A stretch of DNA of 64,000 nt. Source: Negaprion brevirostris (Eukaryota). Where the stretch lies: assembly GCA_030324005.1 (NCBI GenBank), contig JARDVH010000130.1, positions 19,356,262 to 19,420,261 of the forward strand, read 5' to 3'. This document shows, one piece after another, positions 4,901 to 64,000 of the stretch (position 1 is the first letter of the stretch; each line of letters opens with the position of its first letter). The notes beneath the pieces are model-generated. The model saw nothing but the letters and a program-made list of their open reading frames with translations. It made no database searches and was not told the origin of the DNA. A program made the position numbers and the translations under genes.

Positions 4901-5064
4901 CAGGATTTCAGTCTCTCCTCCCAAAACTCTGTTCCCTTGGGCTCACAAGTATGTCCCTGAGCACAAAGAACTCCTCCAAAGACTTGCCTTCATCCCAGCG
5001 GCCCACAGCCAGCTTCACCAACCTTCCAGTTGCTCAGGCTTCTCCTGTGTTCTCTTCACTTGAA

Positions 5065-5250
5065 TAAAAGCAAAATATTGCAGATGCTGGACATCTGAAA
5101 TAGAAACAGAAAATGCTGGAGAAACTCAGCACATCTGGCAGCATTAGTTCTGTCGAAGGGTAATTTCGATCCGAAACATGAACTCTTTTCCTCTCCACAG
5201 ATGTTGCCAGACTTGCTGAGTTTAACCGGCATTTTCTGTTTCTATTCCTG
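5065..5250. mobile_element. Penelope-like pLTR relic in inverted configuration with a decayed hammerhead core
   Basis: Arm 5098-5144 is the reverse complement of 5201-5247. Between them lies ctgtcgaagggt..gatccgaaac, a CUGANGA..GAAA-like core. Confidence 0.7.
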
Positions 5251-6529
5251 TTCTCATAAAGTCTGCTGACTACAACCTGTTTACTATTTGGAGCAACTTT
5301 CTCTGCCCTTTGGCTTTTAACTTAACTGGGACCTGTCTCTGTCCCTTCTGAGACCTTTCCCTATGCCCTGCATGGGACCATTGTCTATAATGGCACTCTG
5401 CTTTCGGTCATGTGTCATTGTTTTTCGTACCATTTCCCTTTCTGCACAGGTGTGCTGGGTCTGTCCTTGACTCAATGAACTTAAGTTATTGAGTTGTGTC
5501 TCTGCAGACTGTTTCTAATCTGTGCATGCAGGGAAATTTCGAGGCCTGCCAGAAATTCCTGACCCCTGTCCTTGTCGTTTAAAGGTAAGTCTTTCACAAG
5601 TCAAAGGTATGGTTGCATCTTAAGCGAAGTATAGGACAAACATTCACTGTGTTTTCAGCTGAAAAGACTCTTCAGCAATTCTTGGTTGCTAAACGTTCAT
5701 GCAAGTTGAGCAAAATTATTTTTGTCTGTAATAGTGGGCAATATTGTATCTCAAATTCTATAACTGTTTTCTATGCTCAATTAAAGCAGTCTGAAGAGTA
5801 TACTTTATTAGTTCTGTACATGTCTCCCAATCATTTGTGATCAAAGAAAGTATTCCTGATTGAGCTGGCAAGTCTGTTTTGACACAGTAGGCCAATGTAT
5901 GCACTATGTCTTGCAAACTGTGCCAGTCACACTGATCGTTCAGGTTAGATCCATTGCTTTCTAACCAAAAAAATCCAATCATTTAACAGCAGGGCTCAGA
6001 AGTTAAAATTCAAATATATTGACTGTTAAAATGAACATGAAGTGTAAAAGGGTAAATGTGGCTCTTGCAGCAATCAACCCTTGCATGAAAACTACTACTT
6101 TACACATTGTAGAGCAAAGGGTTAACAGAAGCACAAGATGTTGATGCAACCTCACTTGATAGCATAAAAGAGAGTTGGAAGGAGCAGATTTCAATCTTGT
6201 GCAGAGGTTTTAACCTGCATGCAACAGCTGTAAATAAAGAGTTATGGTTTTTAACAAACCATGGTTTCTAGCTTGCTTTGGGAGAATAGACAAACCTCTT
6301 CTAAACCCTGAACACAACACAGGTAATCTATGCTTCATGCTGCAATCTGATTGCCATATTGTATCTTAACTGTAGAGTAGAAACACAGCAACAATACTAG
6401 CCTGTTATCAATAAACCACTTATCATCTTGTACTTAGGTTTGAACTGTTTTCTGACAGAAGCATATTTTACGATAGTGGTTTTATCAATGCAAGTTGACA
6501 AGATGGTTAAATTGATTGTAATGCTGATG

Positions 6530-6750
6530 TATCTGAAGGGTCTGTCTCCCTTGAGAGTTGCAGTTTGCCAAATCTCTCCTCTTAAGACAGCCCTGCCATC
6601 CACAGAACAAGTCTGGTGAACCTTCATTGCTTTCCCTCATTGACAACATTGAGATAAGGGGACCAAAACTGGACACAATACTCCAGATACAGTCTAACCA
6701 AACTTCTATATAACTGAAGCGAGACTTGACTACTCCTGTACTCCCATTCT
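6530..6750 (-). mobile_element. CR1 LINE fragment
   Basis: Antisense RT C-terminal motifs (ggaccaaaactggacacaatactccag = LEYCVQFWSP). Confidence 0.75.
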
Positions 6751-6879
6751 TTTAAATACAGCTTGATAGAGGCTGTATTTGAAAAAACCTCCGAATTCTC
6801 AGGTTCACTCCTCCTGGCATTTTCAGAAGCCTTTTCTTTTAATCTTATGCAATCTTTAACTTCCCTTTTCAGCAGATGG

Positions 6880-7330
6880 CAGAAAGGTCATTTGCATCTC
6901 ATGAATGCTCATTAAAACAGCTGCCCACTGGCATCCCGTCAGGCCTTTCAGTCTTGCATCATGCCAGTGGAAATTTACATTGGCTTCAAACCCAATTGCT
7001 AATGAGTGGCATGCACATTGGATTTCAGTTCACCAGATACTTGAGGTGAGTACAGCAACTTTCTGCCATCGTGCTACACTGCTCCTGATGTGCTGTTCAG
7101 CATTCTGACAGGCAGATTAGTACTTGCCCTCCATCTCCATGCTGAGCTGATTTTCATGGACAGCACCGAGCTGCTGGATCCAGGGACCCTCCTGTCACTG
7201 TGTCCTGGGGTTGGGGAGTTCAGGGGTGCCCTTGCCTCTGGCGCCACAGAGCAGTGTCTATCTGGACCACATGATGTTGCGGGGCTCGTACACCAATGCA
7301 AAAAAGGTCCAAAATGTGACTGGGGTGTTG
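6880..7330. mobile_element. Harbinger-like DNA element fragment, homologous to 43698-44230
   Basis: Shares catttgcat.tcatgaa and cctgatg.gctgttca..caggcaga..tccatctcc.tgctgag.tga blocks with 43860-44120 in the same orientation. The superfamily call is an inference. Confidence 0.55.
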
Positions 7331-7677
7331 TTAGGTGAGGGGGGTGTGGCCTAATGAAGTTAAGGGAGGCACTGTGGAAGGAGGACTGTTCAAGGAGCTG
7401 GGAAAGGGTGAAGGCTCACAATGACAGGCAGAGCAGTAAGGAGGTGGATGAAGAAGGTGAACAATGGAAGGCGGGGAGAAGATTGAGGGGAGGGAACCTT
7501 GATCCCAACAAGGCTGCAAGAAAAGCTCACAAAAAAGTCAAAGGGATACCACATTGTTTACTGGAAGGGGATGAATGAAGTCTCTAGATGCAGTGGGTAG
7601 AGGTCCAAGTGGGGCATGGGTACAGATGGTGAGCTCATGAGGAGGGTTGTTGAATCAAGGAACAGCCTTTTCCCACC

Positions 7678-7810
7678 AAAAGAAAAAATGTTGGAAAATC
7701 TCAGCAGGTCAAGGCTTTGACGAAGAGTCATCTGGACACGAACCATCAGCTCTTTTCTTTCCTTACAGATGCTGCCAGACCTGCTGAGATTTTCCAGCAT
7801 TTTCTCTTTC
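7678..7810. mobile_element. Penelope-like pLTR relic, inverted configuration
   Basis: 7685-7710 pairs with 7778-7803 (25/26), enclosing ttgacgaagagtcatctggacacgaacc, a decayed hammerhead core. Confidence 0.7.
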
Positions 7811-8802
7811 CATAGGAATTTGCTTTTAAACAGCCTTCTCTCTGTGGATTGCTGAAGACAGGTGGGCTGGAGAGTTGTGCTGGGCTGATATTTATATAAA
7901 GCATTGGGACCTTTGGCAAATCAGCTGCTGACCTGCCTAGAGAGTCGGAGGGGAAGTCGCTGGTGTGTAACTGATGAATCTGNNNNNNNNNNNNNNNNNT
8001 GGGACAGGTGCCACGAGAACCATCCATCACCACACTTGGTCTTAAAATGGGAGAATTCTGTCCCAAGACTCTGTATGAGAAATCTTTTGCAAAGCAATTA
8101 ACCACTATGCAGCTCCTATGATGTTAGTCATCATATTTTGTGACCAAAACAATGACAGCTTAGTTTCAAGCTAACAATTACCCTGAAAGCGTACAGTAGA
8201 GGAGTTCAAGGCACCAAATCCAGTTGTCCTATTACTTTCTGTGAAGTGGTAAACCTAAACTAAAAATCAGAGGTACAAGTGTTGTAAAGGAAGAAGAAGC
8301 AAAGCTTTGAATTCCATTTTGTCTTGTGTTTTGTTAATTTTTGGAAGTGAAGTTCTCCTGTACTTCAGTTTTGATTACGGTCAACATTTTTCAAACAAAT
8401 CCGAGGAAAATCTTTGTTTTGAAGTTCACTTTTTCCTCTGTTTACTATTCTGATTTATTTTGAAAGCTGCATGAAGAAATAGAATAAAATACTTGCGTAG
8501 ATGAATGCAGATGAAGTAGTAATCCCCCATTTTGGTCCTTCACAAATCTTTCGGAATGACACAAGAATGTAGATGGGATGTCACATGTCCATGATGTATT
8601 CACACTCATCCTTGACAAAGCTGAGCCCGGTTATTGTTAACCCCCCACCAGGTGTGGAACGTACAATTCTAATTTTAAGTTGCGTGGTTTGATTAAGGTT
8701 TCAGAATGCAGCAAATGATGTGCTGGGACCAGCTGTAAAAATACTTAATCTTTTTTCAAAAAAAAACTGTATCGTGAAGAAGCATAAAATTTTGACTCGC
8801 AT

Positions 8803-11079: not shown

Positions 11080-11510
11080 AGATCATGGTAACATAGTGAT
11101 TAGCACTGCTGCCTCACAGCGCCAGGGACCCGGGTTGAATTCTGGACTTGGGTGCTTGTGTGGAGTTTGCACATTCTCCCCATGCCTGTGTGGGTTTCCT
11201 CCGGGTACTCCGCTTTCTTCCCACAGTTCAAAGATGTGCCGGTTAGATGGATTGGCCATGCTAAATTGTTGCTTGGGGGCAATTAGATGGAATTAAGGGA
11301 AAGGGCCTGGGTGGGATTGTTGATGCAGATGCAATGGGCTGAATAGCCTCCTCCTGCACGTAGTGATTCTATGATTAGCCATGGTTAATGCGCAGGATGA
11401 CAGGAATAGGGCGAGTGAGAGGGCCTGGGTAACATGCTCTATCAGAGAATTGGTGCAGACCTGATGGGCTGAATGACCTCTTCTGCACTGTGGAGATTCT
11501 ATGATTGTAT
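11080..11510 (+). mobile_element. HE1-type V-SINE followed by a second tandem CR1-type tail
   Basis: tRNA-like head (ttagcactgctgcctcacagcgccagggacccgggtt), V domain (tgtggagtttgcacattctcccc..tgggtttcctccggg) and tail gggctgaat.gcctc..ctgcac..attctatga present twice. Confidence 0.9.
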
Positions 11511-12130: not shown

Positions 12131-12949
12131 GACCACAATTGTAAATATTTATTGGGATTTGGAAATCAGAGTAGAATTTCAAAATTTGCAGATTGCTAGA
12201 ATGGTGAATGTGTCGTTCATGCAGTCTGTGACAAGGTACAATGACTATTAGTAATCAAGCAGAATGGGTGTGTAGGGGTTAAAATCATTGAACGTAGTTG
12301 CATTCTCCTGCGAATTCAGTACAGCAGCGTTTCTCTGGGAAGCTGCTATAAGTTGTTTCTGTGAAGTTCCCACAGTTAGGCTGCATAAACAAGATGAACA
12401 AGGGACAAAAGGATAGGAACTTTGATACACCACAAGGAGGGTAGCCATAACAGCATGTTCTGCAGGTGTGAATGTTTGGATGGTGTAGCCATGCAGGTGT
12501 GCTTCATTAGTAATTGAATATTATAATTAGGCAAGCGTTTAGAGGCTGTAACTGGTTCACTGTATGCACCGGATGCGAGGTAATTAGAACTAGTAGCAGT
12601 ATTTAGATATCAGTGACTTCAGAACAGATGTATACTTGTGATTGGTATGTGCAAATTACTTTTGCAATGTATTGTTCAGGAAGCCTGAATGCCTTGTGAA
12701 GATGGGCTTTCCTGCTATAGCTTAAATAAAGGCCGATTTAAAACTGAAAGTTTTGTCTGGTCTTCCCACAGTGTCGTACGTGGTAGCTGAATGGCAGTTT
12801 AGTTCCCTAACAGCATGTGTAAAAGCAAAATACGGTGGATACTGGAGATGTGTCTCTCTCCATAGATGCCACTAGACCTGCTGAGTTTTTTCCAGCACTT
12901 TGCCTGTGACAAATCCATTCTGAAATAAAAACAATGAATGCCACCATCG

Positions 12950-19789: not shown

Positions 19790-19917
19790 AACAAGTACAT
19801 AAACACTTACAACAGTCAGAAGTTGAGTACTTACAGTTTGCGTTTCGATGGATGAATAACCTGCTGATGAGGGAACTTCCCCTGCGGTGTACCATCAGGT
19901 TATGGGATACATACCAG
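19790..19917 (+). CDS. TBC1D22A: Internal coding exon of TBC1 domain family member 22 (Rab-GAP, C-terminal TBC subdomain); paralog A favoured, B not excluded
   Basis: Acceptor ttattctcttgcag at 19776-19789 and donor gtgagt at 19918. The 128-bp exon (phase 1 to phase 0) reads (E)QVHKHLQQSEVEYLQFAFRWMNNLLMRELPLRCTIRLWDTYQ, the TBC1D22/Gyp1 signature. Paralog A is inferred only from the very large flanking introns (>19 kb and >44 kb with no other exon seen). Confidence 0.9.
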
Positions 19918-22988: not shown

Positions 22989-23115
22989 GGGCAGGATTTT
23001 ACAGCCTTGCTCATTGCAAAACTGTGAAATCCTACCTGGGGTCAACAGACCTTTGCATGGAGCGCCCCTTGCCTGCTTAGATTTCCATGGTGGGCGGGTC
23101 GGTAAATTTGCAGCC
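22989..23115. mobile_element. 127 bp MITE with GGGC-type termini and an internal hairpin
   Basis: gggcaggattttac ... gtaaatttgcagcc. The left end also folds on itself (ggcaggattttacag..ctgtgaaatcctacc). Confidence 0.6.
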
Positions 23116-24604: not shown

Positions 24605-25588
24605 GAGGTGAGATATGGTGAGAGGGCATGCTATCCAAGGGGCTTTGGCCTTGTGGATCCAGAACTGCCTTGCCTGCAGAAGGCAGAGAGTGGTTGTGGA
24701 TGGGTTTTTTTCTGCATGGAGGCCGGACACCAGTGGAGTGCCCCAGGGATCTGTTCTAGGACCCTTGCTGTTGGTCATTTTCATAAATGACCTGGATGAG
24801 GAAGTGGAGGGGTGGATTAGTAAGTTTGCCGATGACACGAAGGTTGGTGGTGTTGTGGATAGTCTGGAGGGATGTCAGAAGTTTCAGCAAGACATAAATA
24901 GGATGCAAGACTGGGCGGAGAAGTGGCAGATGGACTTCAACGCGGATAAATGTGTAGTGGTCCATTTTGGCAGGTCCAATGGGATGAAGGAGTANNNNNN
25001 NNNNNNNNNNNNNNNNNNNNNNNNNNNNNNNNNNNNNNNNNNNNNNNNNNNNNNNNNNNNNNNNNNNNNNNNNNNNNNNNNNNNNNNNNNNNNNTGTGGA
25101 AGCTATTGAGAGGGTGCAGAGGAGATTTACAAGGATGTTGCCTGGATTGGGAGGCATGCCTTATGAAGATAAGTTGAGGGAGCTAGGTCTCTTCTCCCTG
25201 GAGAGACGAAGGTTGAGAGACAACCTGATAGAGGTTTATAAAATGTTGAGAGGAGTAGATAGGGTGGATTCTCGGAAGCTATTTCCCAGGGCTGAAGTGG
25301 TCGCTACAAGAGGACACAGGTTTAAAGTGCTGGGGAGCAAGTACAGAGGAGATGTTAGGGGTAAGTTTTCCACTAAGAGGGTGGTGAATGAGTGGAATCA
25401 GCTACCGTCGGTGGTGGTAGAGGGGAACTCACTGGGGTCTTTTAAAAGACTTCTGGATGAGTATATGTGATCTAATGGGATTGGGAGTTACAGATAGTTG
25501 TATGGCTCGGTAGGTATAGCTGTGATCGGCCCAACTTATGGGCTGAAGGGCCTGTTTGTGCTGTAGTGTTCTATGTTCTATGTTCTAA
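24605..25588 (+). mobile_element. Relatively young 5'-truncated CR1 LINE (RT C-terminal half plus 3' UTR)
   Basis: SGVPQGSVLGPLL..FINDLD..ISKFADDTKVGG, then ERVQRRFTRMLPGL..TRGHRFK. Tail (ttctatg)n. Contains an N gap. Confidence 0.95.
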
Positions 25589-26988: not shown

Positions 26989-27293
26989 GGGCAGCACGGT
27001 GGCACAGCGGTTAGCACTGCTGCCTCACAGCGCCAGGGACCCGAGTTTGATTCCCGGCTTGCCTGTGAGGAGTTTGTATCTTCTCCCTGTGTCTGTGTGG
27101 GTTTCCTTTGGGTGCTCCGGTTTCCCCCCATAGTCCAAAGATGTGCAGGTTAGGTGAATCGGCCATGCTTCGTGCCAGTGGGATTAGCAGGGTAAATACG
27201 CGGGTTTATGGGGATAAGGCCTGGGTGGGATTTGTGGTTGGTGCAGACACAATGAGCCAAATGGCCTTCTCCTGCATTGTACGGATTCTATGA
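26989..27293 (+). mobile_element. HE1-type V-SINE, full length
   Basis: gggcagcacggtggcacagcggttagcactgctgcctcacagcgccagggacccgagtttgattccc (A and B boxes), V domain and CR1-type tail ending attctatga. Confidence 0.92.
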
Positions 27294-29159: not shown

Positions 29160-30235
29160 ATTTGTCAAAGTGCTGTAATTGGCTTGCTAGTAGGAGGCAG
29201 AAGATTGTTTTTCAGACTGGAAGCCTGTGACGAACCATGTGCCACAGGGATCGGTGCTGGGTCCATTGTTGTTTGTCATTTATATGAACCATTTGGATGA
29301 GAATGTAGGAGGCCTGCATAGTAAGATTGCAGATGACACCAGAATTGGTGGTGTAGTGGACAGTGAAGAAGGTTATCTATGACTACAGCGAGATCTTGAT
29401 CAACTGGGCTAGTGGGCCGAGGAACGGCAGGTGAAGTTTATTTCAGATAAATGCGATGTGTTGCATTTTGGTAAGACAAACCAGAGCAAGACTTGAACAG
29501 TAAATGGTAGGGTCCTGGGCATATTGTCGAACAGGGAGACCTCGGAGTGCATGTACAAAGTTTCTTTAAAGTGGTGTCACCGGTAGATAGGATGGTGAAC
29601 AAGGTGTGTGGCACACTTAACTTGTTTGGTCTGTGCATTGAGTACAGGAGTTGGGAAGTTAGGTTACAACTGTACAAGACATTGGTAAGGATCACATTTG
29701 GAATACTGTGTGCAATTCTGGTCATCCTATTAAAGGAAGGATGCTATTAAACTGGAGAGGGTGCAAAAAAGATTTACAAGAATGTTATTGGGACTGGCAA
29801 GTTTGAATTATATGGAGAGGCTGGATAGGCTGGCACTTCTTTCTCTGGAGCATGGGAGGATGAGGGGTTACCCTGTAGAGGTATATGAAATCATGAGGAA
29901 CGTAGCTCAGATGAATAGCCAAGGTTGTTTGCCCAGCATAGGAGAGTCCAAAACTGGAGGGCATAGGTTTAAGGTGAGAGGGAAAAGATTTAAATGGGAC
30001 CTGAGGGGAAATTTTTTCATACAGAGGGTGGCATGTATTTGGAATGAGCTTCCCAAGAAGGTGGTAGAGACGAGTACAATTACAACATTTAAAAGACATT
30101 TGGATAGGTACGTGGATATGCATGGTTTGGGGGAAATGGGCCAAATGCAGGCAAATTGGACCAGTTCAGTTTAGGAAACCTGGTTGACATGGGCAAGTCG
30201 AAGGGCCTGTTTGTGTGCTGTATATCTCTATGCCT
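29160..30235 (+). mobile_element. CR1 LINE 3' ~1.1 kb, frameshifted
   Basis: VPQGSVLGPLLFVIY, ADDT, QKRFTRML and GHRFKVRGKRF..LRGNFF motifs, plus the 3' UTR gaagggcctgtttgtgtgctgta. Confidence 0.93.
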
Positions 30236-33849: not shown

Positions 33850-35560
33850 TAACCAGCACCCTCAATTCTATCTCTCTAAAAATATACACCTCGTGTATAA
33901 TTTGCTTTTTTGATGACCTTGCTAATCCACGGTGCAACTTTGAGCAATTGTTGCATTTGTACACTGGTATCCCTTTGTTGTTCTATTCTTGGACTTAAAC
34001 CTTCCAAATAAGTGACTTCTCTAGTCTTCCTAATAAAATATATGACTTCACATTGTAACTGTTGAACTTCATTTGCAAATTTTCCCATTCTGCAAACTGT
34101 TTAATGGCCTTGCCTCTCAAATATTTATTTATCTCAGTTTTGAAAGTTTTAGTTGATTCTTTAGACATTTGGGGATAAAGTTCAAGATTTTCACAACTCT
34201 TCGTGTGAAAATGTACTTTTTAATTTCACTCCTTCGTCTGATTTTAGGGTTATATCCCATTCTTTTAGGTTTCTTCCTCTAAAGGAAATGATCTTCGTCC
34301 TTCCAAACTAAAGAAATGCAAATCAAGACCATACACCCAATTGCATTATCGCGTGGTTAGCAAAGCAGCATTTTAAACAGGTTTTGAGAAAGAATTTTTG
34401 ATATTGAATCAATCCTGATGAGGAAAAAAAGCCTAATTTCTACTAGCCGCCTTTGTATCTTCGCCTTGTCTGTTAGCCATTTTTGTGCAGGGCACACATG
34501 TCCCTGTGTTTCTCCACAGCTCTTAGCCTGTCAGCATTGAAAAAATATTTTGATTTGTCTTTGCTGGACTGAAAACAGTTGATTTCCCTACGTTGAATTC
34601 CTTCTGCTATAGTATTTCTCTAATCAAGCAGTTTGACTGTGTCTCGATCCAGACAACTTACTTTGCCACCTAACTTATTGCAAACATGGATATACAACTC
34701 TGTTCCATCATGGTGAAAAGTTCTGGGCATCTGTCAATCAGAACTTAGCCTTGATTCTGACTCTGTTTCCTACTTCGCTGAGTGAATGGCCAGCCTATGT
34801 CTTAATGTTTCTTCCGATCATATCATTAGAATCCCTGTAGTTCAAAAGAAGACCATTTGGCCCTTCTAGTCTGCATCGACCACAGTCCCACCTAGGCCCT
34901 ATTCCCGTAACCCTTCATATTTGTCTTGCTAATCTCCCTGACACTAAGGAGTAATTTAGCACAGCCAATCATCCTAACATGCACGTTTTTGGACAGTAGG
35001 ACAAAACCGAACACCAGGAGGGAACCCAAGCAGACATAGGGAGAATATGCAAACCCCACACAGACAGTGACCCAAGGCCGCAATTGGACCTGGATCCCTG
35101 GTGCTGTGAGGCAGCTGTTATAACCATGATACCACTGTCCTGCCCAAAGAAGGAGTATAAATATGTGCTTGTATTTTGTGAATAATCTCTTGTGTAGAAC
35201 CTTATTGAGTGCCTTCTGGAAGCCTATGCAGTCTTTGTACATAGATACCTCCCAGTCCACTTTGCTAGTTACCTAGGCACAAAATTCAATTAAATTCGTC
35301 AGACCTGACCTACCCATCCCAAATCCACACACTATTTAATTGGCTTGTGCTTATCCAAGTGCTCAATCACTCCATTTCTGATAGATTTAAATAATATCCC
35401 CACAGCTTATGTTAAACTAACAGGTCTGTAGATACTTCATCTCTCTCTTTCATTCCTCTCTTCTCAAGTAATGGAGTCTATATTTGCAATTTTGTAATCC
35501 AAAAGCGCAATTCCTGATTGCGATCAGCCTTGAAGAAATATGACAAATGTACCTGTGGAC
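33850..35560 (-). mobile_element. Patchwork of old CR1 fragments, with a V-SINE insertion
   Basis: Antisense RT motifs: accttattgagtgccttctggaa (FQKA..KV.HKRL), taactaacaggtctgta (YRPVSLT-like) and GKFANE..CEVIYF. Confidence 0.6.
34823..35145 (-). mobile_element. HE1-type V-SINE, full length
   Basis: Reverse complement of head (gtgctgtgaggcagc..ctgccc), V domain and CR1-type tail. Confidence 0.88.
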
Positions 35561-38076: not shown

Positions 38077-38370
38077 GGGGCGGCACAGTGATTAGCACTA
38101 TGCCTCACAGTGCCAGGGACCTTGGTTCAATTTTGGCCTGGGATGACAGTTTGTGTGGAGTTTGCACATGCTCCCCATGCCTGCGTGTGTTTCCTCTCAC
38201 ACTTCAAAGATGTGCAGGTTAGGTTGATTGGCTATGCTCAATACCCTTTAGTGTTAGGGAGATTAGCAGTGTAAATGTATGGTGTTATGGGGATAGGGCC
38301 TGGATAGGATTGTTGTTGGTGCAGGCTCAATGGGCCGAATGGCTGCTTCTGCACTGCAGGGATTCTATAA
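38077..38370 (+). mobile_element. HE1-type V-SINE, full length
   Basis: ggggcggcacagtgattagcacta.tgcctcacagtgccagggac, V domain and tail gggccgaatggctgcttctgcactgcagggattctat. Confidence 0.9.
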
Positions 38371-38480
38371 TGGACAGCAGAGCTAAGTCTTTTGTCTCCC
38401 TTGATCTTTTCACAGCATTCAGTACAGTCCACCACTTGACTCTGCTCCATTCCTTTTCCTCTGTGGTGCACCTGTTGCCA
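38371..38480 (+). mobile_element. L2 RT fragment
   Basis: SLDLFTAFSTVHHLTLL resembles L2 LLDLSAAFDTVDH..LL. Confidence 0.55.
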
Positions 38481-38754
38481 AACCTCCTCCGCCTCATTTT
38501 GCTACCTCACCCAGTGGACTCTGCACTTCTGCAACAGTTGATTTTCTTGGGTGACCATCTTTGGAGTAACATGGGACTTTACCATCCTGGTTAGCTTATT
38601 CACCTGATCAACTTGCTGCTCTTCGAAACAGGCATGGGTCCAGTTTTGTTTGTAAAATGCTGGGATGTCTCAGCTGATGTGAATCTTTATCATGATCACC
38701 AGCCTCCTCTTTCAAAGTAGTATCTGGGGTTTAACACCCAGTCTAAAAGGAGTT

Positions 38755-40059: not shown

Positions 40060-40352
40060 GGATGACATGGTGGCACATTGGTTAGCACTGCTGTCTCACA
40101 ATGCTAGACATCCAGGTTTGATTCCTGGCTTGGGTCACTCTGCAGAGTCTACACATTCTCCCTGTGTCTGTGTGGGTTTCCCCCAGGTGCTCCGGTTTCT
40201 TCCCACAGTCTGAAAGATGTGCTGGTTAGGTGCTATAGCCATCCTAAATTCTCTGTGTGCCCAAATAGGTGCCAGAATGTGGTGACTACGGGATTTTCAT
40301 AAAGCTTTATTGCAATATAAATGTAAGCCCACTTGCAACACTTTAAAATAAG
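40060..40352 (+). mobile_element. V-SINE, full length, alternative tail
   Basis: HE1-like head and V domain, then ..gtggtgactacgggattttcataaagctttattgcaatataaatgtaagcccacttg..aataa. Confidence 0.85.
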
Positions 40353-42264: not shown

Positions 42265-42523
42265 TTTATATATTAGTCACAAGTAAGGCTTACGTTAACA
42301 CTGCAATGAAGTTACTGTGAAATTCCTCTGGTTGCCACGTTCTGCTGCCTGTTTGGGTCAATGCATCCAGTCAGCGTGTCTTTCAGACTGTGGGAGGAAA
42401 CTGGAGGACTTGGAGGAAACCCACACAGATATGGGAAGAAGGTGCAGACTCACAGACAGTGACCCAAGCTGGGAATCAAACCCAGGTCCTTGACGCTGTG
42501 AGGCTAACCGTTGTACCACTGTG
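42265..42523 (-). mobile_element. V-SINE, full length, alternative tail
   Basis: tattagtcacaagtaaggcttacgttaacactgcaatgaagttactgtgaaa, V domain and antisense head (gacccaagctgggaatcaaacccaggtcc..gctgtgagg). Confidence 0.85.
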
Positions 42524-46185: not shown

Positions 46186-46990
46186 GGGGGGAGATGGTGG
46201 CATTGTGACATTGTCACTGGACTAGTAATCCGGTGACCTGGCCCGAGAATCTGGGTTTGGATCTCCCCAGAGCAGATGGACAATGTTGAATTGAATTTCA
46301 AAAAAAATACGTAGCATAGATTTAAGTTAACAAGCAAGGGATTTAGAGGGGATTGGAGGAAAAACTTTTTCACCCAGAATATAATGGGAATTAGGAATTC
46401 TCTGTCTCAAAGGGTGGTAGAGGCGTCAACTCTCACAACATTTAAGAAGCATTTAGGTAAGCACTTGAAATGCCATAGCAGACAAGGCTATGGAGTATTC
46501 TGGAAAATGGAATTGGAATAGATAGCTACTCAATGGAGTTTGGAAGGATGAGGGGGGATCTCTTTGAAACTTCTATATTACTGAAAGGCCTAGATCGAGT
46601 GGACGTTGAGAAGATGTTTCCATTAGTTGGAGAGATGAGAATCCGAGGGTGCAGCCTCAGAGGAAAGCACTCTTTTAGAATTGAGAAGAGGAGGATTTTC
46701 TTCAGCTTGCGAATAGTGAATCTCTGTAATTCATAGCCACAGAAGGCTTTGGAGGCCAAGTCATTGAGTATATTTAAGACAGAAATAGGTTCTTGATAAG
46801 GATATCAAAGGTTGCGGGGAAAAGATGAGAGAATGAGGTTGAGAAACATGTCAGTCATGATTGAATGGCAGAGCAGACTTGATGGGCCTAATGACCTAAT
46901 TCTGCTCAATATCTTGTCTTATTTCAAATGATGGCTGTCACAGACTTGATGGGCCAGAGGGCTTCTTTCTGAGCTGTGAAAACTCTTATG
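46186..46990 (+). mobile_element. SINE head followed by two nested CR1 3' ends
   Basis: 46186-46310 matches the 48456 SINE head. One CR1 (46315-46525) is split by a second CR1 (46526-46922, MRGDLFET..KGLDRVD) and its tail resumes at ~46926-46990. Confidence 0.75.
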
Positions 46991-52349: not shown

Positions 52350-52705
52350 TAGAACATAAGAACATAAGAAATAGGAGCAGGAGTAGGCCATGTAGCCCTT
52401 CGAGCCTGCCCCGCCATTCACTAAGATCATGGCTGATCTGTCGTGGCTCAGTTCCACATTCCCACCCTCTCCCCATAACCCTTAATCCCCTCGCCTGTNN
52501 NNNNNNNNNNNNNNNNNNNNNNNNNNNNNNNNNNNNNNNNNNNNNNNNNNNNNNNNNNNNNNNNNNNNNNNNNNNNNNNNNNNNNNNNNNNNNNNNNNGA
52601 ATTCCAGAGATTCACCACCCTTTGAGTGAAGAAGTTCCTCCTCAACTCCGTTCTAAACCGCCCCCCCTTTATCTTAAGGCTGTGCCCCCTAGTCCTACTG
52701 TCCTT
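52350..52705 (-). mobile_element. Young CR1 LINE 3' end
   Basis: (agaacata)2 tail repeat and MRRNFFTQRVVNLWN on the minus strand; N gap inside. Confidence 0.9.
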
Positions 52706-53026
52706 TCTGAGCGGGACTGATCTTAAGACTGATCATTGGTTAAATGTCCTTGGTGGTTATATTTTCATTGTTATATAAATATTAGAGCAGAATGTTAAAC
52801 TAACAAATTGAACTAATTCAAATGTAGCTTAACATCATTGCCTCAGTGGAATCTATTTACTGTTGGGTTCAGCCATGTAATTCAATTACTACCATGTGTT
52901 TAATAACTCAAAATAATTTATGAATGCTTCTTTGCCACTTTTCCCAATATGTTTCTGGCTTGAAAGTTAAGTGCTCTTGTACGACAGCATGGATATGTCC
53001 AGCAACAGTGCTTCATGAGTAATATA

Positions 53027-53969: not shown

Positions 53970-56900
53970 AAGTTTTTAAACTTGTCCTATTTTTGAATAT
54001 TCCGAACATGCAAGGTCAAGAGGCGTTGGATGGGCAAATGCTGTCCTTCCACTCCAGGAAAACACTAAGCACTCAAATAATTAAAATTAGAACAGATAAA
54101 ACACATCCACATGCTTTTTGGAGGCTCAGTTCTGCTGTATGTGAAGTCAGCATGGTCAGTGTTCAATATTTTATTAATAACCCATTGATTTTTGTACCAT
54201 TTCCTCTGTTCCTCTGAATGACCCTGTTTACAAAATAATGCTCAATCAATATATTATCATCAAAGATGTGAATGTGGGCAGTGTTGTCATCTGCTTGTAA
54301 TCAGTTGAACGTTGAACACTGGTATGAAGAGATGTGCCTCAGGATGTAATTTATTCAAAGGTCCTTCAATACATAAGCACTTTCCAGCGCTCTCAGGATG
54401 AAAAAGGGTACTAATATACTGGGCCCCAGGGAGAATGGTAGAAATTATGTGGTAGGGATAATTGCATAAGGAGTATGTTAGCAATTGTGCAGCTTCTGCT
54501 GTTTTGGAGCATAGAAATGCAAATGAGATCTTTCTGCTTGAGTTATCTTGGTGAAGCTGGGAAAATAGCTTCGGGTTATGGATCAGACTGCCTGCTGCCT
54601 CTGCACAAAAATAACACAATGGGGTACGTGAAAGTTTATAATGTTTACCTTTGCATCTCAGCTCCTCGGCAGCTCGATTCCCTATTGAGATTTTCAGAAA
54701 CAAGTTATCCAAAGCATCGCTTCAAAATCTGGAGGCAATTAAAATCTTGGGCAATATTATATTGGCCGACGATTCTACATTACCCTCAATTTTGAATGGA
54801 AAGAAAGATTGGGCACAGTATGTAATGATGTGGCCACTTGAGACAAATCTTCGGATCAACAGTGATCTTAGGCTTTGAACATTTTACTGATAAATACCAA
54901 GTTACATTTAATTTTAAAATATTTAGTTAAAAGCCAGCCTTTCAAATCAAGTGTGTGGTGTTCTGAATAACTCTTGAGATTTGGAGGCTGACAACTTAAG
55001 CAAGTGCTTTGGTTTATAACAATTTTTGTCATTTTTTTCTTTCAATAGTGTACCAAGGTTGGTGGCACAGTTGGAGCGTCATGTTTGTGCGCTTTACCTC
55101 AAAACAATAGACAATGATGGCCCTCATCAGAGTAGGAAACATTTCCATCACGATTTGTAAATGTTTTAAAATGAATAAATCTTGAGGTGTTTTGCAGTTG
55201 AAGGCTGGTAAAACCTTTGGAGTTACAGTTATGTTTGAGTATTCTGTTGAAAGCCAGAGTGGTGTTTGTGTCATTTCTAACCAGATTAGAATCATTAGTT
55301 TGCAACTGATTCCACAATAATTTGACATACATCCTCAGTGCATTTTTCTGTATGCTGTAAGAATATTGCTGCACTTGACTTGAATGCTATTAGTATTTGC
55401 ATATGACTCACAATATTGACTTTTTAATTTCTTAGGTATGCAAATTGCTTCCTTGTGTTATTGTTGAATAATAAACTGTCGATAGATTTTTAAAGAAAAC
55501 GTTATTTGAAAATAATGTAACATTTGTTGGGATGGAAGAAATGAAGATGTGACTTGATTTGAAAAACAATTCCTTGTCCACACACCCAGACTCCAAAGTC
55601 ACACCTTTTATGACTGGTTTTGAAAGAATGAACACCAAATGGAGAATAAGACCCAGTAGTTGAATGGCATTGATTTCAGATGACACCAGAAACTATAAAG
55701 GCCAAGCTCTTAATTCATCGTGCTTGTGACAATTATTTGTTATGCTCGTGAGGGATGTGTTTCAATAATGGATATGGCAAAGCTAGTGGAAATAAAGAGA
55801 AGGCAAAATGCTGCATACTTTGGAAATATGAAAAAGAAGTGCTCAGCAGGGCAAGCAGCATCAAATAGAAATGGAGATGGGGCAGAATTTTCCCAGTTAA
55901 TTGTCATCAGAGTCTCTGACTGAAAACCAGCCTGTATCTCTCCAGATGCACATTGGAGCTTCCAGACCAGATCTTTGGCCAATCTGATTAAAAAAAAGTC
56001 TGATGGTTTACTTTGGTGGGGCAGGGCCTGATAGAGGCAAAATGTGATCCACAGAGATCAGAACACCATCTTTAATGGGTATTCCGATTCACACTGAAGT
56101 TAAACTCTCCATCCCACCATGGACATGAGAACTCCTGTGTGCAACTTAGCAAGAGGATTGTCAATGATCTTCTATTAAAAACTCATTTCTCTGTCTACAA
56201 ATGCTCCCTGAGTATTTCCAGCACATTCTGTTTTTGTTTCTGGTGGAAATAAGTCCATTTGGTTTCAGTTCAAATGCTTAGGGAGAGATTTTTCACTTGG
56301 ATGTGGGAATTATGAGTTGGGAGATTTCTTGATGCTTTGATCCTGCCTGACAGTGCCCTCTTGCACTTTATTTTCTTGGTGAGCTGGCAGGGACAGGCTG
56401 GATTTGGGGCCACTTTCTCTTACAGGAAGCCTGAGGTAGTTGATGCTGAGTTTGGCCTACTTCCCTTCACTGGCCCACCCGTACATAATTGTCAGGACCG
56501 CTCATCCCCCTTCCTTCCCCCTTTCTTACCAACTATTTCCCATGCCCCCATGCCCACCTGCCCAGTATCTATTATGGACTGAACTTGTGAAACCCCATCA
56601 TAGAATTGGGAAGTCTTTGAGATGGTCATGAAACTGTCAAAATTAACAAATGACCATTCAAAAACCTGTTGATAAAAATATTCTGGTAGAAGCTCAAAAT
56701 TGTTGTACAAAACAAAGATTACAGTCTCCTTGATAGCTGTGTCAAGAAAGCCTGCTGAGCTGAATCCATTAGTGAGCTTTGGAGCTCAGCCATGTTTTAT
56801 CACTACTGTCTGTTACACTACTTCAGAAACTGAAGTGATGCATTCAATCAAAGAGTTAAGTGCACGGTACAAATGGCACGTTAAAATTTGAATCTCACTA

Positions 56901-57616
56901 TCTTTGAGTCCAATGTATCTGAATGTCTTTGCAATGCTGGTCAGTTTAATGATGACTTACCTTTTAAAAGCAAAATCCTATCTATAATTATGATTAATAN
57001 NNNNNNNNNNNNNNNNNNNNNNNNNNNNNNNNNNNNNNNNNNNNNNNNNNNNNNNNNNNNNNNNNNNNNNNNNNNACAAGTCTTTTTGTACCTCAGGTCA
57101 TGGCATTTCCCATGCCAGACAAAATGGCAGCAAAATGGGGTCTCAATTTTAGAATTCTGCCGCTGGCCCACCCCACCCCTTCTCTCCCCTATTCTCCCCA
57201 CCTGAAGCCTGTTTGCTCCATATCACGATTGCAAATCCAGCCCCTGGATTATTATTTTTAACAACTATGATGAACAATGTGGTTTCTGCATTACATTGAC
57301 TACTGAGGGATGAAAGTTGGTTTTATAATTTTTGCACATTGACTTAAAAATCTGTTATCGTAACACACCATAAAATTGGGATGGGGTAACTACTTTGGAT
57401 TTTTTTTTGTTGCTTTTGATCTGTATGTAGTTACTTGGAAATAAAAGCCTGACAGATCCCTCTCAGCTGAAGCCTCTGTGGTTTGTTAATGTCATCAGAA
57501 CCCTCTGAAATGTTATTCTTGGAAACCAACTTGTGGTGCTCTGTGTAATGGCCCAAACTTTTAAATTGGCAGCGTTCACCATCATCATTTCTTTGAAACT
57601 TGTAGCACCAACTGAA

Positions 57617-57898
57617 GTCTGGACCTGCCCAGTTAACTGTGAAATCTAGAGGTTGCTGTTGACACTTCCTCATCAGGTGCATTGTTGAAATCCCCCAATA
57701 GTGCAGTGAATTAGAAATAATTGAACTGATAACTTGCCCTTTTATGCTGATAATTTACCCTACTACACTATTAATTAGCATAAAAGGGCAAGTTATCAGT
57801 TCAATTATTACTAATTCACTGCACTATTGGGGGATTTCATGATGAGGAATTGTAGACAGCAATCTCTGGATTTCAAGTTTAACTGGGCATATCCAGGC
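57617..57898. repeat. Long palindrome (inverted repeat)
   Basis: Core arms 57686-57748 and 57777-57839 match at 62/63 around a 28-nt spacer. Outer arms 57617-57675 and 57840-57898 match at 48/59 ungapped. Confidence 0.97.
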
Positions 57899-58296
57899 TC
57901 CAGGGCAAGTAGACTGCTGAAAGATCAGGTATTGCAAATGTGCAATGTCAAATTTCTCAATAATTTTACACTTTCAGTTATTTTAAAAGTTTGTGTTGTA
58001 TTCCACTTCTATGCTAATCCCATGTCTATGCCCCAATTGTTTAATTTGCCCTGTGAAATTTAATTAAAATTGAAGGAGGATCACAGTGTTTTACTACCTG
58101 ATTTGCTGCCTGTGATAATTCAATGTGACTAACTGCTTCTCCTGTTTGATGGCAGCACTATTGTTGGATGTCTGGTGCTCCCTTTGATATGGCACAAATG
58201 CAAACCAACATCAGGAGAGAGGAAAACACCCTGTGGCAAAACTTCATAGATCAGCGGCCAGTGCTGCCACCATATCGTAGACAGAAAGCTGGGCTA

Positions 58297-58910
58297 ACAT
58301 AGACCATAAGATGTAAGAGCAGCATTAGGCCATTTGGCCCATCAAGTCTGTTCCACCATTCAATCATGCTGATAAGTTTCTCAGCCAAATTCTCCCAGTC
58401 TTTCCCTGTAACCTTTTGATCCTTTGACCAATCAAAAACCTGTCAATCTCTGTTTCAAATCTACTTCTGTGGCAATGAATTTCATAGATTCACCACCTTC
58501 TGGCTGAAGAGTTTCCTCCTTATCTCAGTTCTAAAGGGTCAACCCTTTATTCTGAGACTGTGCCATCAGATCATAGTCTCTCGCACTAACAAACATTTTC
58601 CCTACACCCACACTATCGAGACCTTTCAGTATTCTGTTTCAATGAGGTCCCCCCTCATCCTTCTAAATTCCATCAAGCACACATCTAGAATCCTCAAACA
58701 CTCCTCATACATCAAGCTTTTCATTCCAAGGATCATTCTTGTGAACCTCCTGTGGACCCTCTCCAGAACTAGCACGTCCTTCCTTAGACACGGGGCCGAA
58801 AATTACTCTCAGCACTCCAAATGTGGCCTGACTCGAGCCTTATTGAGCCTCAGTAGAACATCCCTGCTTTTGTATTCGAGTCCTCATAAAATGAATGCTA
58901 ACATTTGACT
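58297..58910 (-). mobile_element. CR1 LINE 3' ~600 bp
   Basis: accataaga..ggccatttggcccatcaagtctg tail; antisense RPHLEC.E.FSAP and MRGDLIET. Confidence 0.9.
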
Positions 58911-61964: not shown

Positions 61965-62960
61965 GTGTACACCATTATTCCCATTGAAACTGAATTTTCC
62001 GTAGGATGGGCTCCATGCTGTTGAACCCTGTATGAATGGGGATCACATTGCTTATGATTTTGCCCTGTGAGCATAGTCTCATGATGGATGTCAAGCACCT
62101 TTTGCTGAAACTTTTCCAAAGCTTTAATGTGGCGCCTGTAGTAAACCCAGGATTGTATGCCATACGGCAGGCAGTATGGGCAGTGGCTTGTAGACTTTGA
62201 TTTTATTCTCTAACTTAGTGCCATGCTGCTCTTTGATCATGAGGTCAGCTATGGGCTGAAGTTGCTTTTTTGCATGCAGGAATATCTTCTTCAATAATGG
62301 CTTGCCAAGAGAGAGCATGCTAGCAAGATTTCTTTCTACAACCCTGTGATTAGTGTCAACTATGGTTGTGTCTAGTAGTGGACAGTATATGTCCAGTACT
62401 GGCTGAAACATCACCTCAGTCTTATGCACGCTGATTTGGAGACAAACGTTTTTGGCAACGTTCAGATTTGTTTGCCATATCTGGATGGCTTCCTTGTTGT
62501 CGACATTGAGGGTGTAATCATCTGCTTATAGAAGCTTTCTTCCTGCTTTTGTGACTTTGGTGGACGCACACATTCTGGACAAATTAAAAAATTTCTCTAA
62601 ATGGAACCTAATGTTGCTGCCCACTGGTACAATTCTGCTGTTGTCCTTAAACATTACAGCAAAGTTGGAAGCATTGGGGAATTACAGTGTATCTTTGCTT
62701 TATTTTTAGAATGTCAGAGATTGGTGCCATGCACCAGGTTGACTCTCGTTGTCTCAAGTTGGGTCCAGGAGTAGCATACACAGATCAGAGGTGCTTTATT
62801 GAATTGCCTTTCAGATATGTAAAATTATTCAATATTAATTCTTGAAGCCAGGCAGATCTGATGATTTCAAGTACGTAGGGACAATTTGGTGTATTTCACC
62901 AGTGCCCATATATGTGAAGTAGCCATAATTTGCCTTGTGGCATTGGATCTGGTAACCTCT
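61965..62960 (-). mobile_element. RTE-clade (BovB-like) LINE RT fragment, decayed
   Basis: Minus strand gives KFFNLSRM.A.TKV.., an LL(Y)ADD-like motif (agcttctataagcagatgat, ~62515-62535) and KIKVYK..ILP, typical of RTE-BovB ORFs. Confidence 0.65.
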
Positions 62961-63105: not shown

Positions 63106-63663
63106 ATCCCTTGCCCCATTCCCAACCACCAGCCAAATGTCGCAATAATATTTGTTGAAGATTTGATTTTTTTTTAGATTTACACTTGATGATCTTCGCA
63201 CCCTGTGGAAATGATTGGGATCGTAATTTTGTCCATGAAGCACTGCCCAGTTTCTTTGTCTATTGGGACTTTTGTGGGAGTTTTGGTTGTGAAGATTAAG
63301 GTTCTTTATTTCAACTATATTTTTAAAAATGCATGAAATACCTTCTGCCTTTTTGTTGTTTGCCCCTCTCTGTTCTAATTGTCACCTTAGTCATAAGAGC
63401 ATTTTTCATGTGCAATCAGTCATTTAGTGGAAGCTTTGAATGCCATCTGTTCTGTGACAGCATGAGTTCTCAACTGTTTCAGGCTGAGAACAAAGTGCCT
63501 GACGTAAATGCAAACTGCGGTGTGCTGAAGCTTTTCAGTCATTATGGTAGTCACTGTAAAATAACACAAAGTTAAATGCTTCTCTGTCATAATTAGCTGA
63601 GACTAAAGTGTTTTTGCCTCTTTTTGATTAATGAAGATGTAAGCTAATTTCTTTCAAAGTTGT

Positions 63664-64000
63664 AAGAACATAAGAAATAGGAGCAGGAGTAGGCCATCTA
63701 GCCCTTCGAGCCTGCCCCGCCATTCAATAAGATCATNNNNNNNNNNNNNNNNNNNNNNNNNNNNNNNNNNNNNNNNNNNNNNNNNNNNNNNNNNNNNNNN
63801 NNNNNNNNNNNNNNNNNNNNNNNNNNNNNNNNNNNNTCTCCACCTCTATCCTATCCGTCCCATTCATCATCTTATACGTCTCAATGAGATCTCCCCTCAT
63901 TCTTCTAAACTCTGATGAGTACAAGCCTAGTTTAGTCAGCCTCTCCTCATAGCTCAACCCCCTCAACATCCGGTTCATTATCCCCATCCTGTTCATTATT
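63664..64000 (-). mobile_element. Young CR1 LINE 3' part, runs off the window
   Basis: Tail nearly identical to 52358-52430; minus strand LSYEERLTKLGLYS.EFRRMRGDLIETYK. Confidence 0.92.

Follow-up and report, generated by a model that had tools for sequence, protein, structure and literature searches.

A quasi-palindromic fold-back element of about 292 bp (57612-57903) stands out in the window, that is, the whole stretch of 64,000 nucleotides that was analysed, by combining a nearly perfect centre with more diverged outer arms. We tentatively interpret this element as an old, MITE-like relic, the central 150-185 nt of which were re-homogenised by template switching or arm-to-arm conversion. 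Nothing found so far indicates a function for the palindrome and, as the evidence stands, we regard it as one repeat relic, as yet unclassified. Its parts are the following.

57612-57675: outer arm on the left, mismatched at 12 of 64 pairs (81% identity), the innermost 10 pairs (57666-57675) perfect
57676-57685: bulge of 10 nt, unpartnered in the right arm
57686-57748: left arm of the core, 63 nt, with perfect runs of 29 and 33 pairs flanking an A-A mismatch at 57715
57749-57776: spacer or loop of 28 nt, A+T-rich (A or T at 21 of 28 positions)
57777-57839: right arm of the core
57840-57903: outer right arm

The anatomy given in a preliminary description of this DNA was reproduced exactly: the core arms (57686-57748 and 57777-57839) differ at 1 of 63 positions, A opposite A at 57715/57810, around the 28-nt loop; the adjoining outer arms (57617-57675 and 57840-57898) differ at 11 of 59; and the left arm carries the 10-nt bulge. 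According to a repeat finder, the outer arms reach slightly farther, to 57612 and 57903. The bulge could be an insertion in the left arm, a deletion from the right arm or the loop of an older hairpin. In the RNA fold of the + strand, weak additional pairing narrows the spacer to 15 nt. The segment 57613-57902 contains no CpG, against about 11 expected (the window as a whole has about 27% of the expected number), which is consistent with an old methylated repeat.

In a scan of all centres, the palindrome is the strongest hairpin of the window, with a score of 187 against 72 for the runner-up, and all 14 inverted pairs of 25-mers in the window lie inside it. The RNA folds at -194.6 kcal/mol on the + strand and -184.3 kcal/mol on the - strand, and none of 100 shuffled sequences did as well on either strand; the DNA fold (-115.6) was likewise equalled by none of 200 shuffles (z of about -24 against shuffles). 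The earlier observation that the palindrome matches no other repeat in the window holds, in that BLAST found no second copy there. The best other match in the window is 29 nt long (E 0.07), a likeness to a CR1 reverse-transcriptase stretch that we took to be due to chance. Plasmid and phage collections yielded no match at E up to 1. We found no paper on this locus in the literature within our view; subscription papers, Repbase reports and most supplements, which lie outside it, possibly bear on the family. The 81% identity of the outer arms is close to that of two other clear inverted repeats in the window (80% and 80%), and from this agreement with other old inverted repeats, together with the size and the fold-back shape, we infer that the palindrome originated from a transposon.

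The preliminary description emphasised an abrupt step in identity between the core and the outer arms. The core is indeed more symmetric than uniform decay predicts, but the step is modest and is best placed at 57666 rather than at the edge of the bulge. This freely fitted changepoint lies 10 bp outside the bulge and delimits a near-perfect zone of 73 pairs with the bulge included; under this split, 12 of the 53 outer pairs are mismatched, compared with 1 of the 73 inner pairs. With the breakpoint left free, permutation gives p = 0.00045 by site and p = 0.02 by mutation event, adjacent mismatches being merged (n = 9 events). Depending on the method of counting, the outer rate exceeds the inner one 5.5- to 16.5-fold (lower 95% bounds, 1.1-2.4). 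A genuine step is probable, but it rests on few events, and the locus had been selected for this very pattern. That the whole palindrome is of one age, with uniform decay of about 10% and a step produced by chance clustering of a few mutations, appears improbable. The total of only 9 substitution events, the event-level p value, the rate-ratio bound of 1.1 and the way the locus was picked all leave room for such an explanation, but the site-level p value obtained with a free breakpoint and the contrast between 72 of 73 matched inner pairs and 41 of 53 matched outer pairs argue against it.

If the rate that PMC10587355 gives for sharks, 7e-10 mutations per base per generation, is applied, the difference within the core would correspond to about 1e7 generations (95% range 2e5-6e7) and those between the outer arms to 1.6-1.9e8 generations. 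The latter figure looks too large for a literal reading; perhaps the arms were never identical, or the long-term rate may be higher.

We consider it very unlikely that a fold-back artefact of the assembly or of the sequencing library created or homogenised the core. The assembly is gappy, with 11 runs of N in the window, the nearest of which ends 537 nt upstream of the palindrome, and library-made palindromes have been documented (PMC3946424). The palindromes documented there are, however, read-terminal rather than central, and the core carries a mismatch in its middle, with the diverged outer arms remaining in register to its left and right. Moreover, the two arms have only one 33-mer, and not a single 34-mer, in common, so that there is little for graph collapse to act on.

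A protein-coding exon that bears on the orientation of the palindrome lies 37.7 kb upstream of it.

19790-19917, + strand: coding exon of TBC1D22 (A or B), with AG/GT ends, matching PDB 6d0s (E 7e-21) and 2qfz (E 2e-20) and the Pfam family RabGAP-TBC

The exon codes for 41 residues, which match TBC1D22B about as well as TBC1D22A. Given its orientation, the + strand is likely the strand of the pre-mRNA. Motif scans found no further TBC1D22 exons in the window, and 7 of the 11 runs of N fall between the exon and the palindrome. The palindrome, which had been called intronic, is likely to be so, but with one exon found and seven gaps before the palindrome, this placement is unproven.

The 12 outer mismatches (57613-57675) consist of 7 transitions and 5 transversions. 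The preliminary description counted at least three that would be G-U pairs on the + strand; we find five, together with two that would be G-U pairs on the - strand and five that are unpaired on both. The resulting strand bias (5 of 7) is not significant (p 0.23), nor does it become so when a cluster of three mismatched bases is read as two indels (4 of 6, p 0.34). With this ratio of transitions to transversions and no significant strand preference, the outer mismatches resemble neutral decay. With G and T making up 52.1% of the + strand of the window, a slight excess of G-U pairs on that strand is what transcription-linked mutation bias would lead one to expect.

The inner part of the stem differs in this respect. 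No G-U pairs occur among its 63 pairs (or 73, with the best-fit boundary), compared with 5 of 63 (5 of 53) in the outer part; at the outer rate, the probability of finding none is 0.005 for 63 pairs and 0.0007 for 73. The lone inner mismatch, A-A, is unpairable on either strand. A stem under selection as RNA can keep G-U pairs (PMC8794818), whereas copying at the DNA level removes them, so that the lack of G-U in the inner 73 pairs favours DNA-level copying over RNA-stem selection. The same lack is also consistent with the insertion of a young element and with selection acting on a hairpin at the DNA level. Accordingly, where the symmetry had been ascribed to either selection or arm-to-arm gene conversion, arm-to-arm copying is the part of that proposal that fits best, whereas RNA-stem selection lacks support in the absence of a significant G-U asymmetry, the absence of inner G-U pairs and the geometry of the stem.

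Under the interpretation that we favour, the starting point would have been an old fold-back element some 292 bp in length, most likely what is left of a non-autonomous DNA transposon, and its arms would have decayed to about 80% identity. The centre could then have formed a hairpin in single-stranded DNA at a replication fork or during repair, with one arm serving as the template for the other, by a template switch or arm-to-arm conversion, before synthesis resumed on the normal template. The distal arms, being outside the copied tract, would have retained their old differences, and one transversion would have arisen since the copying event. Selection would be unnecessary, and a long dsRNA stem in the host pre-mRNA would be a by-product. 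The suggestion that the core is being kept symmetric is therefore more than the data require, because a single copying event suffices.

Several properties of the palindrome agree with such an event. It contains a central tract with Watson-Crick pairs only and an abrupt edge, within an imperfect repeat, as template switching would leave. A single template switch has been reported to be enough to create a perfect stem or to repair one (PMC8794818; PMC10710096); the tracts given as examples include one of 28 bases and, in primates, one of 83 bases (PMC10710096). For the lagging strand in eukaryotes, the single-stranded zone is put at 100-200 bp (PMC7999016), which might accommodate the centre of 154-184 nt and not the whole 292 nt. 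Two observations weigh against copying: the tract of 63-73 nt is long beside the examples of 28-83 bases described so far in these sources, and the bulge lies inside the best-fit near-perfect zone, so that a separate indel or a misaligned return would be needed. No microhomology is visible flanking the bulge. A single sequence fixes neither the direction nor the date of the copying.

The closest parallels are the quasi-palindromes corrected by template switching (PMC8794818; PMC10710096), as described there, which have in common with the present case a prior imperfect inverted repeat, a central near-perfect stem with Watson-Crick pairs only and a location on the sense strand of a (here probable) intron. 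The palindrome differs from the known cases in that its tract of 63-73 nt exceeds a miRNA stem and its old outer arms are still visible. A quasi-palindrome of 180 bp at human Xq27.1 (PMC8990796) is of similar size, hairpin-forming and non-coding, and provides a precedent for a rearrangement hotspot rather than for an RNA gene; that locus is intergenic and known from disease insertions, whereas the shark palindrome has no sign of rearrangement beyond the bulge. Long inverted repeats as such are abundant in vertebrates, with 4.59 million that have arms longer than 400 nt reported for 208 genomes (PMC8728187). By analogy, the palindrome would appear to work like a template-switch-corrected quasi-palindrome and to look like a hairpin MITE. 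If neutral, it would be a clean illustration from nature, in a vertebrate that evolves slowly, of arm homogenisation confined to the centre, and comparison of shark genomes could measure the length and the rate of template-switch tracts. It would also imply that perfect pairing, or apparent covariation, in long intronic hairpins need not point to RNA function.

A different, possible but rather doubtful, account of the step is that a younger element of 154 bp, with terminal inverted repeats of 63 bp and TG...CA ends, inserted into the loop of an older hairpin of about 138 bp; a variant that we consider less likely is that the pattern belongs to the consensus of a multicopy MITE. Once 57686-57839 is taken out, the remainder folds into a clean hairpin (-89.8 kcal/mol) with a loop of 8 nt; the bulge, which would represent the loop of the older hairpin, directly adjoins the 63-bp core; and the first 7-mer of the core (TGAAATC) recurs in both outer arms (57640 and 57875; shuffle p 0.02, post hoc). 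Nevertheless, there is no direct repeat of at least 3 nt within 2 nt of the core ends, although a young DDE insertion should retain its target site duplication (TSD). In the hairpin of the reconstructed empty site, the bulge performs no better than random 10-mers (31% of which are as good), and sequence similarity between the inner and outer parts is not significant (p 0.20-0.95). We also rejected a nested, 'Russian-doll' interpretation of the repeated TGAAATC, given that its p value of 0.02 is post hoc and 46% of shuffled arms yield some 7-mer repeat. As for a multicopy family, a single window of 64 kb is compatible with thousands of copies elsewhere, but the outermost 14 pairs hold 4 mismatches, contrary to what a young MITE would show.

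Returning to the old relic with a recopied centre, the resemblance to MITEs is partial. The element is short (292 nt), folds back and is non-coding, with no Pfam family at the cut-off in any of the six frames. Neither a TSD nor an intact terminal repeat was found, which counts against a transposon origin. The earlier remark that there is no clear TSD stands: a scan of 6 candidate pairs of ends that allowed shifts of up to 2 nt yielded nothing beyond a single offset 3-mer; the TSD of an old element could have been erased by decay. Many copies, the remaining hallmark of MITEs, were not seen within the 64-kb window. Hairpin MITEs and other non-autonomous DNA transposons such as Made1, as described in PMC3495686, share with the palindrome a size of 80-500 nt, fold-back of the whole element and lack of coding capacity; in contrast, the identity of the palindrome peaks at the centre and is lowest at the ends, and it has no TSD and one copy in the window.

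Families of the Eulor, UCON, MER12x and X_DNA type are presumably palindromic. By description, which is the level at which we compared them, they resemble the palindrome in being short and non-coding, with old outer arms and no TSD. The Repbase review ties Eulor5 and Eulor6 to Crypton (PMC5753468); the words 'palindrom' and 'hairpin' occur nowhere in the main text of that review, nor in that of the paper on conserved repeat families (PMC3500645). Cryptons, in the 2011 description with which we compared the palindrome, have terminal direct repeats of 4-6 bp in fungi and oomycetes and no terminal repeats in animals (PMC3212892). Direct repeats of 4-6 bp were not seen at the tested ends of the palindrome, and its long inverted arms are unlike the Cryptons described there. 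A reading of the sequence through the bulge as a relic of a LINE endonuclease (LLGDFN) was discarded, with 0 of 3 Pfam searches positive and a score of -1.3 bits against a CR1 APE profile (12th of 84 scored tiles), the profile comparison covering CR1.

An exapted core under selection, of the kind put forward for ancient repeats of vertebrates, whether as a long intronic dsRNA (a source of hairpin-siRNAs, an ADAR substrate or a non-canonical miRNA) or at the DNA level, through a hairpin, a cruciform or an enhancer, seems unlikely to us, despite the very stable stem on the likely transcribed strand. Its plausibility stems from known cases: sense introns are enriched in young miRNAs (PMC10710096), endo-siRNAs from long hairpins have been reported in mouse tissues (PMC3597668), and a copy of Eulor5A is annotated as mmu-mir-763, a mouse miRNA locus reportedly made up of Eulor5A sequence only (PMC3495686). 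The age of the core, possibly about 1e7 generations at the shark rate (95% range 2e5-6e7; PMC10587355), would also allow for selection. On the other side are the lack of G-U pairs in the core, the absence of an Rfam family at the gathering score and the dimensions of the stem, which runs to 63-73 bp and lacks a basal junction at about 35 bp, a geometry wrong for Drosha.

The core had been put forward as a candidate pre-miRNA, and here the geometry does not agree. Canonical pri-miRNAs have a stem of about 35 bp (the optimum according to PMC10710096), an apical loop of at least 10 nt and single-stranded basal flanks. The loop of 15-28 nt fits, but the 63-bp stem, in a total of more than 120 bp, is about twice the optimum of about 35 bp, has a 1x1 mismatch 33 bp from the loop as its sole interruption and lacks a single-stranded basal junction. 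Nor does the core match a known miRNA family: Rfam gave no matches at the gathering score across the 64-kb window, and the 24 sub-threshold matches in 57400-58100 are mostly generic hairpin matches, led by MIR859 (58.8 against 130 bits). By eye, the miRNA chr17_33821 in a Tbc1d22b intron of the mouse shows no relationship to the palindrome, and it is listed as non-conserved (PMC3597668). In the left arm, the minus strand suggested a hammerhead core, which was also dismissed: by eye, CTGATGA is there, but without a GAAA after it. At 57839-57920 (+), ATGATGA at the junction of the core and the outer arm and CTGA about 80 nt downstream have a C/D box-like spacing, with no Rfam snoRNA match there; this is probably chance.

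A more speculative possibility, which we regard as quite unlikely, is that the palindrome renews itself: an ancient hairpin of jawed vertebrates, the centre of which was repeatedly recopied from arm to arm, or held by selection, for a very long time in sharks, would provide the TBC1D22 pre-mRNA with 63-73 bp of perfect dsRNA and give rise to hairpin-siRNAs or heavy A-to-I editing. In that case, the size of the DNA hairpin that forms in the germ line could be read from the gradation of ages along the stem. Should orthologues and small RNAs show selection, the palindrome would be a rare long endogenous hairpin RNA of a vertebrate.

The window contains various other repeats. One family with 11 profile matches is found at 5090-5255 and 7661-7827, with single arms near 12867, 26348, 28358, 32094, 39803 and 56192. 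Two of its occurrences are inverted pairs about 80% alike, the spacers of which contain degenerate CTGAYGA...GAAA-like words; presumably, these are akin to the ends of Penelope-type retroelements with minimal hammerheads, and Rfam found no hammerhead in 5000-8000. Short words, GGGC...ATTT / AAAT...GCCC, occur at 57233-57243, 55880-55890 and 22989-22999 and resemble the termini of Harbinger-like MITEs in sharks; for the copy at 57233, the opposite end may have been lost in the gap at 57000-57075. Degenerate ORFs at 62124-62525 (-) and 38376-38594 (+) resemble, as we assume, RTE and L2 reverse transcriptases; no Pfam family was found for the ORF at 62124-62525 (-).

Fragments of the 3' part of CR1-type LINEs lie at 24612-25470, 29734-30174, 46479-46907, 52357-52732, 58317-58908 and 63663-63736. 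Several runs of N are within or adjoin these fragments, and 52357-52430 and 63663-63736 are 97% alike. Among the 120 matches listed for the CR1-type reverse-transcriptase fragment 24612-24992, the named proteins of sharks (3 records) match at 66-73%, those of birds, turtles and frogs at 46-60%; this comparison disregards 4 further records, unnamed or assigned to bacteria, with identities of 65-71% or more, and unnamed records reach 87%. These figures give good support to a shark origin of the DNA. Vertebrate-type CR1 proteins in 5 match records carry bacterial names and come from short contigs, probably through host contamination in those records. A SINE-like family of about 300 nt is represented at 11084-11375, 26995-27293, 34827-35147, 38084-38371, 40066-40253 and 42356-42523, with copies that are 69-78% alike over the longer matches.
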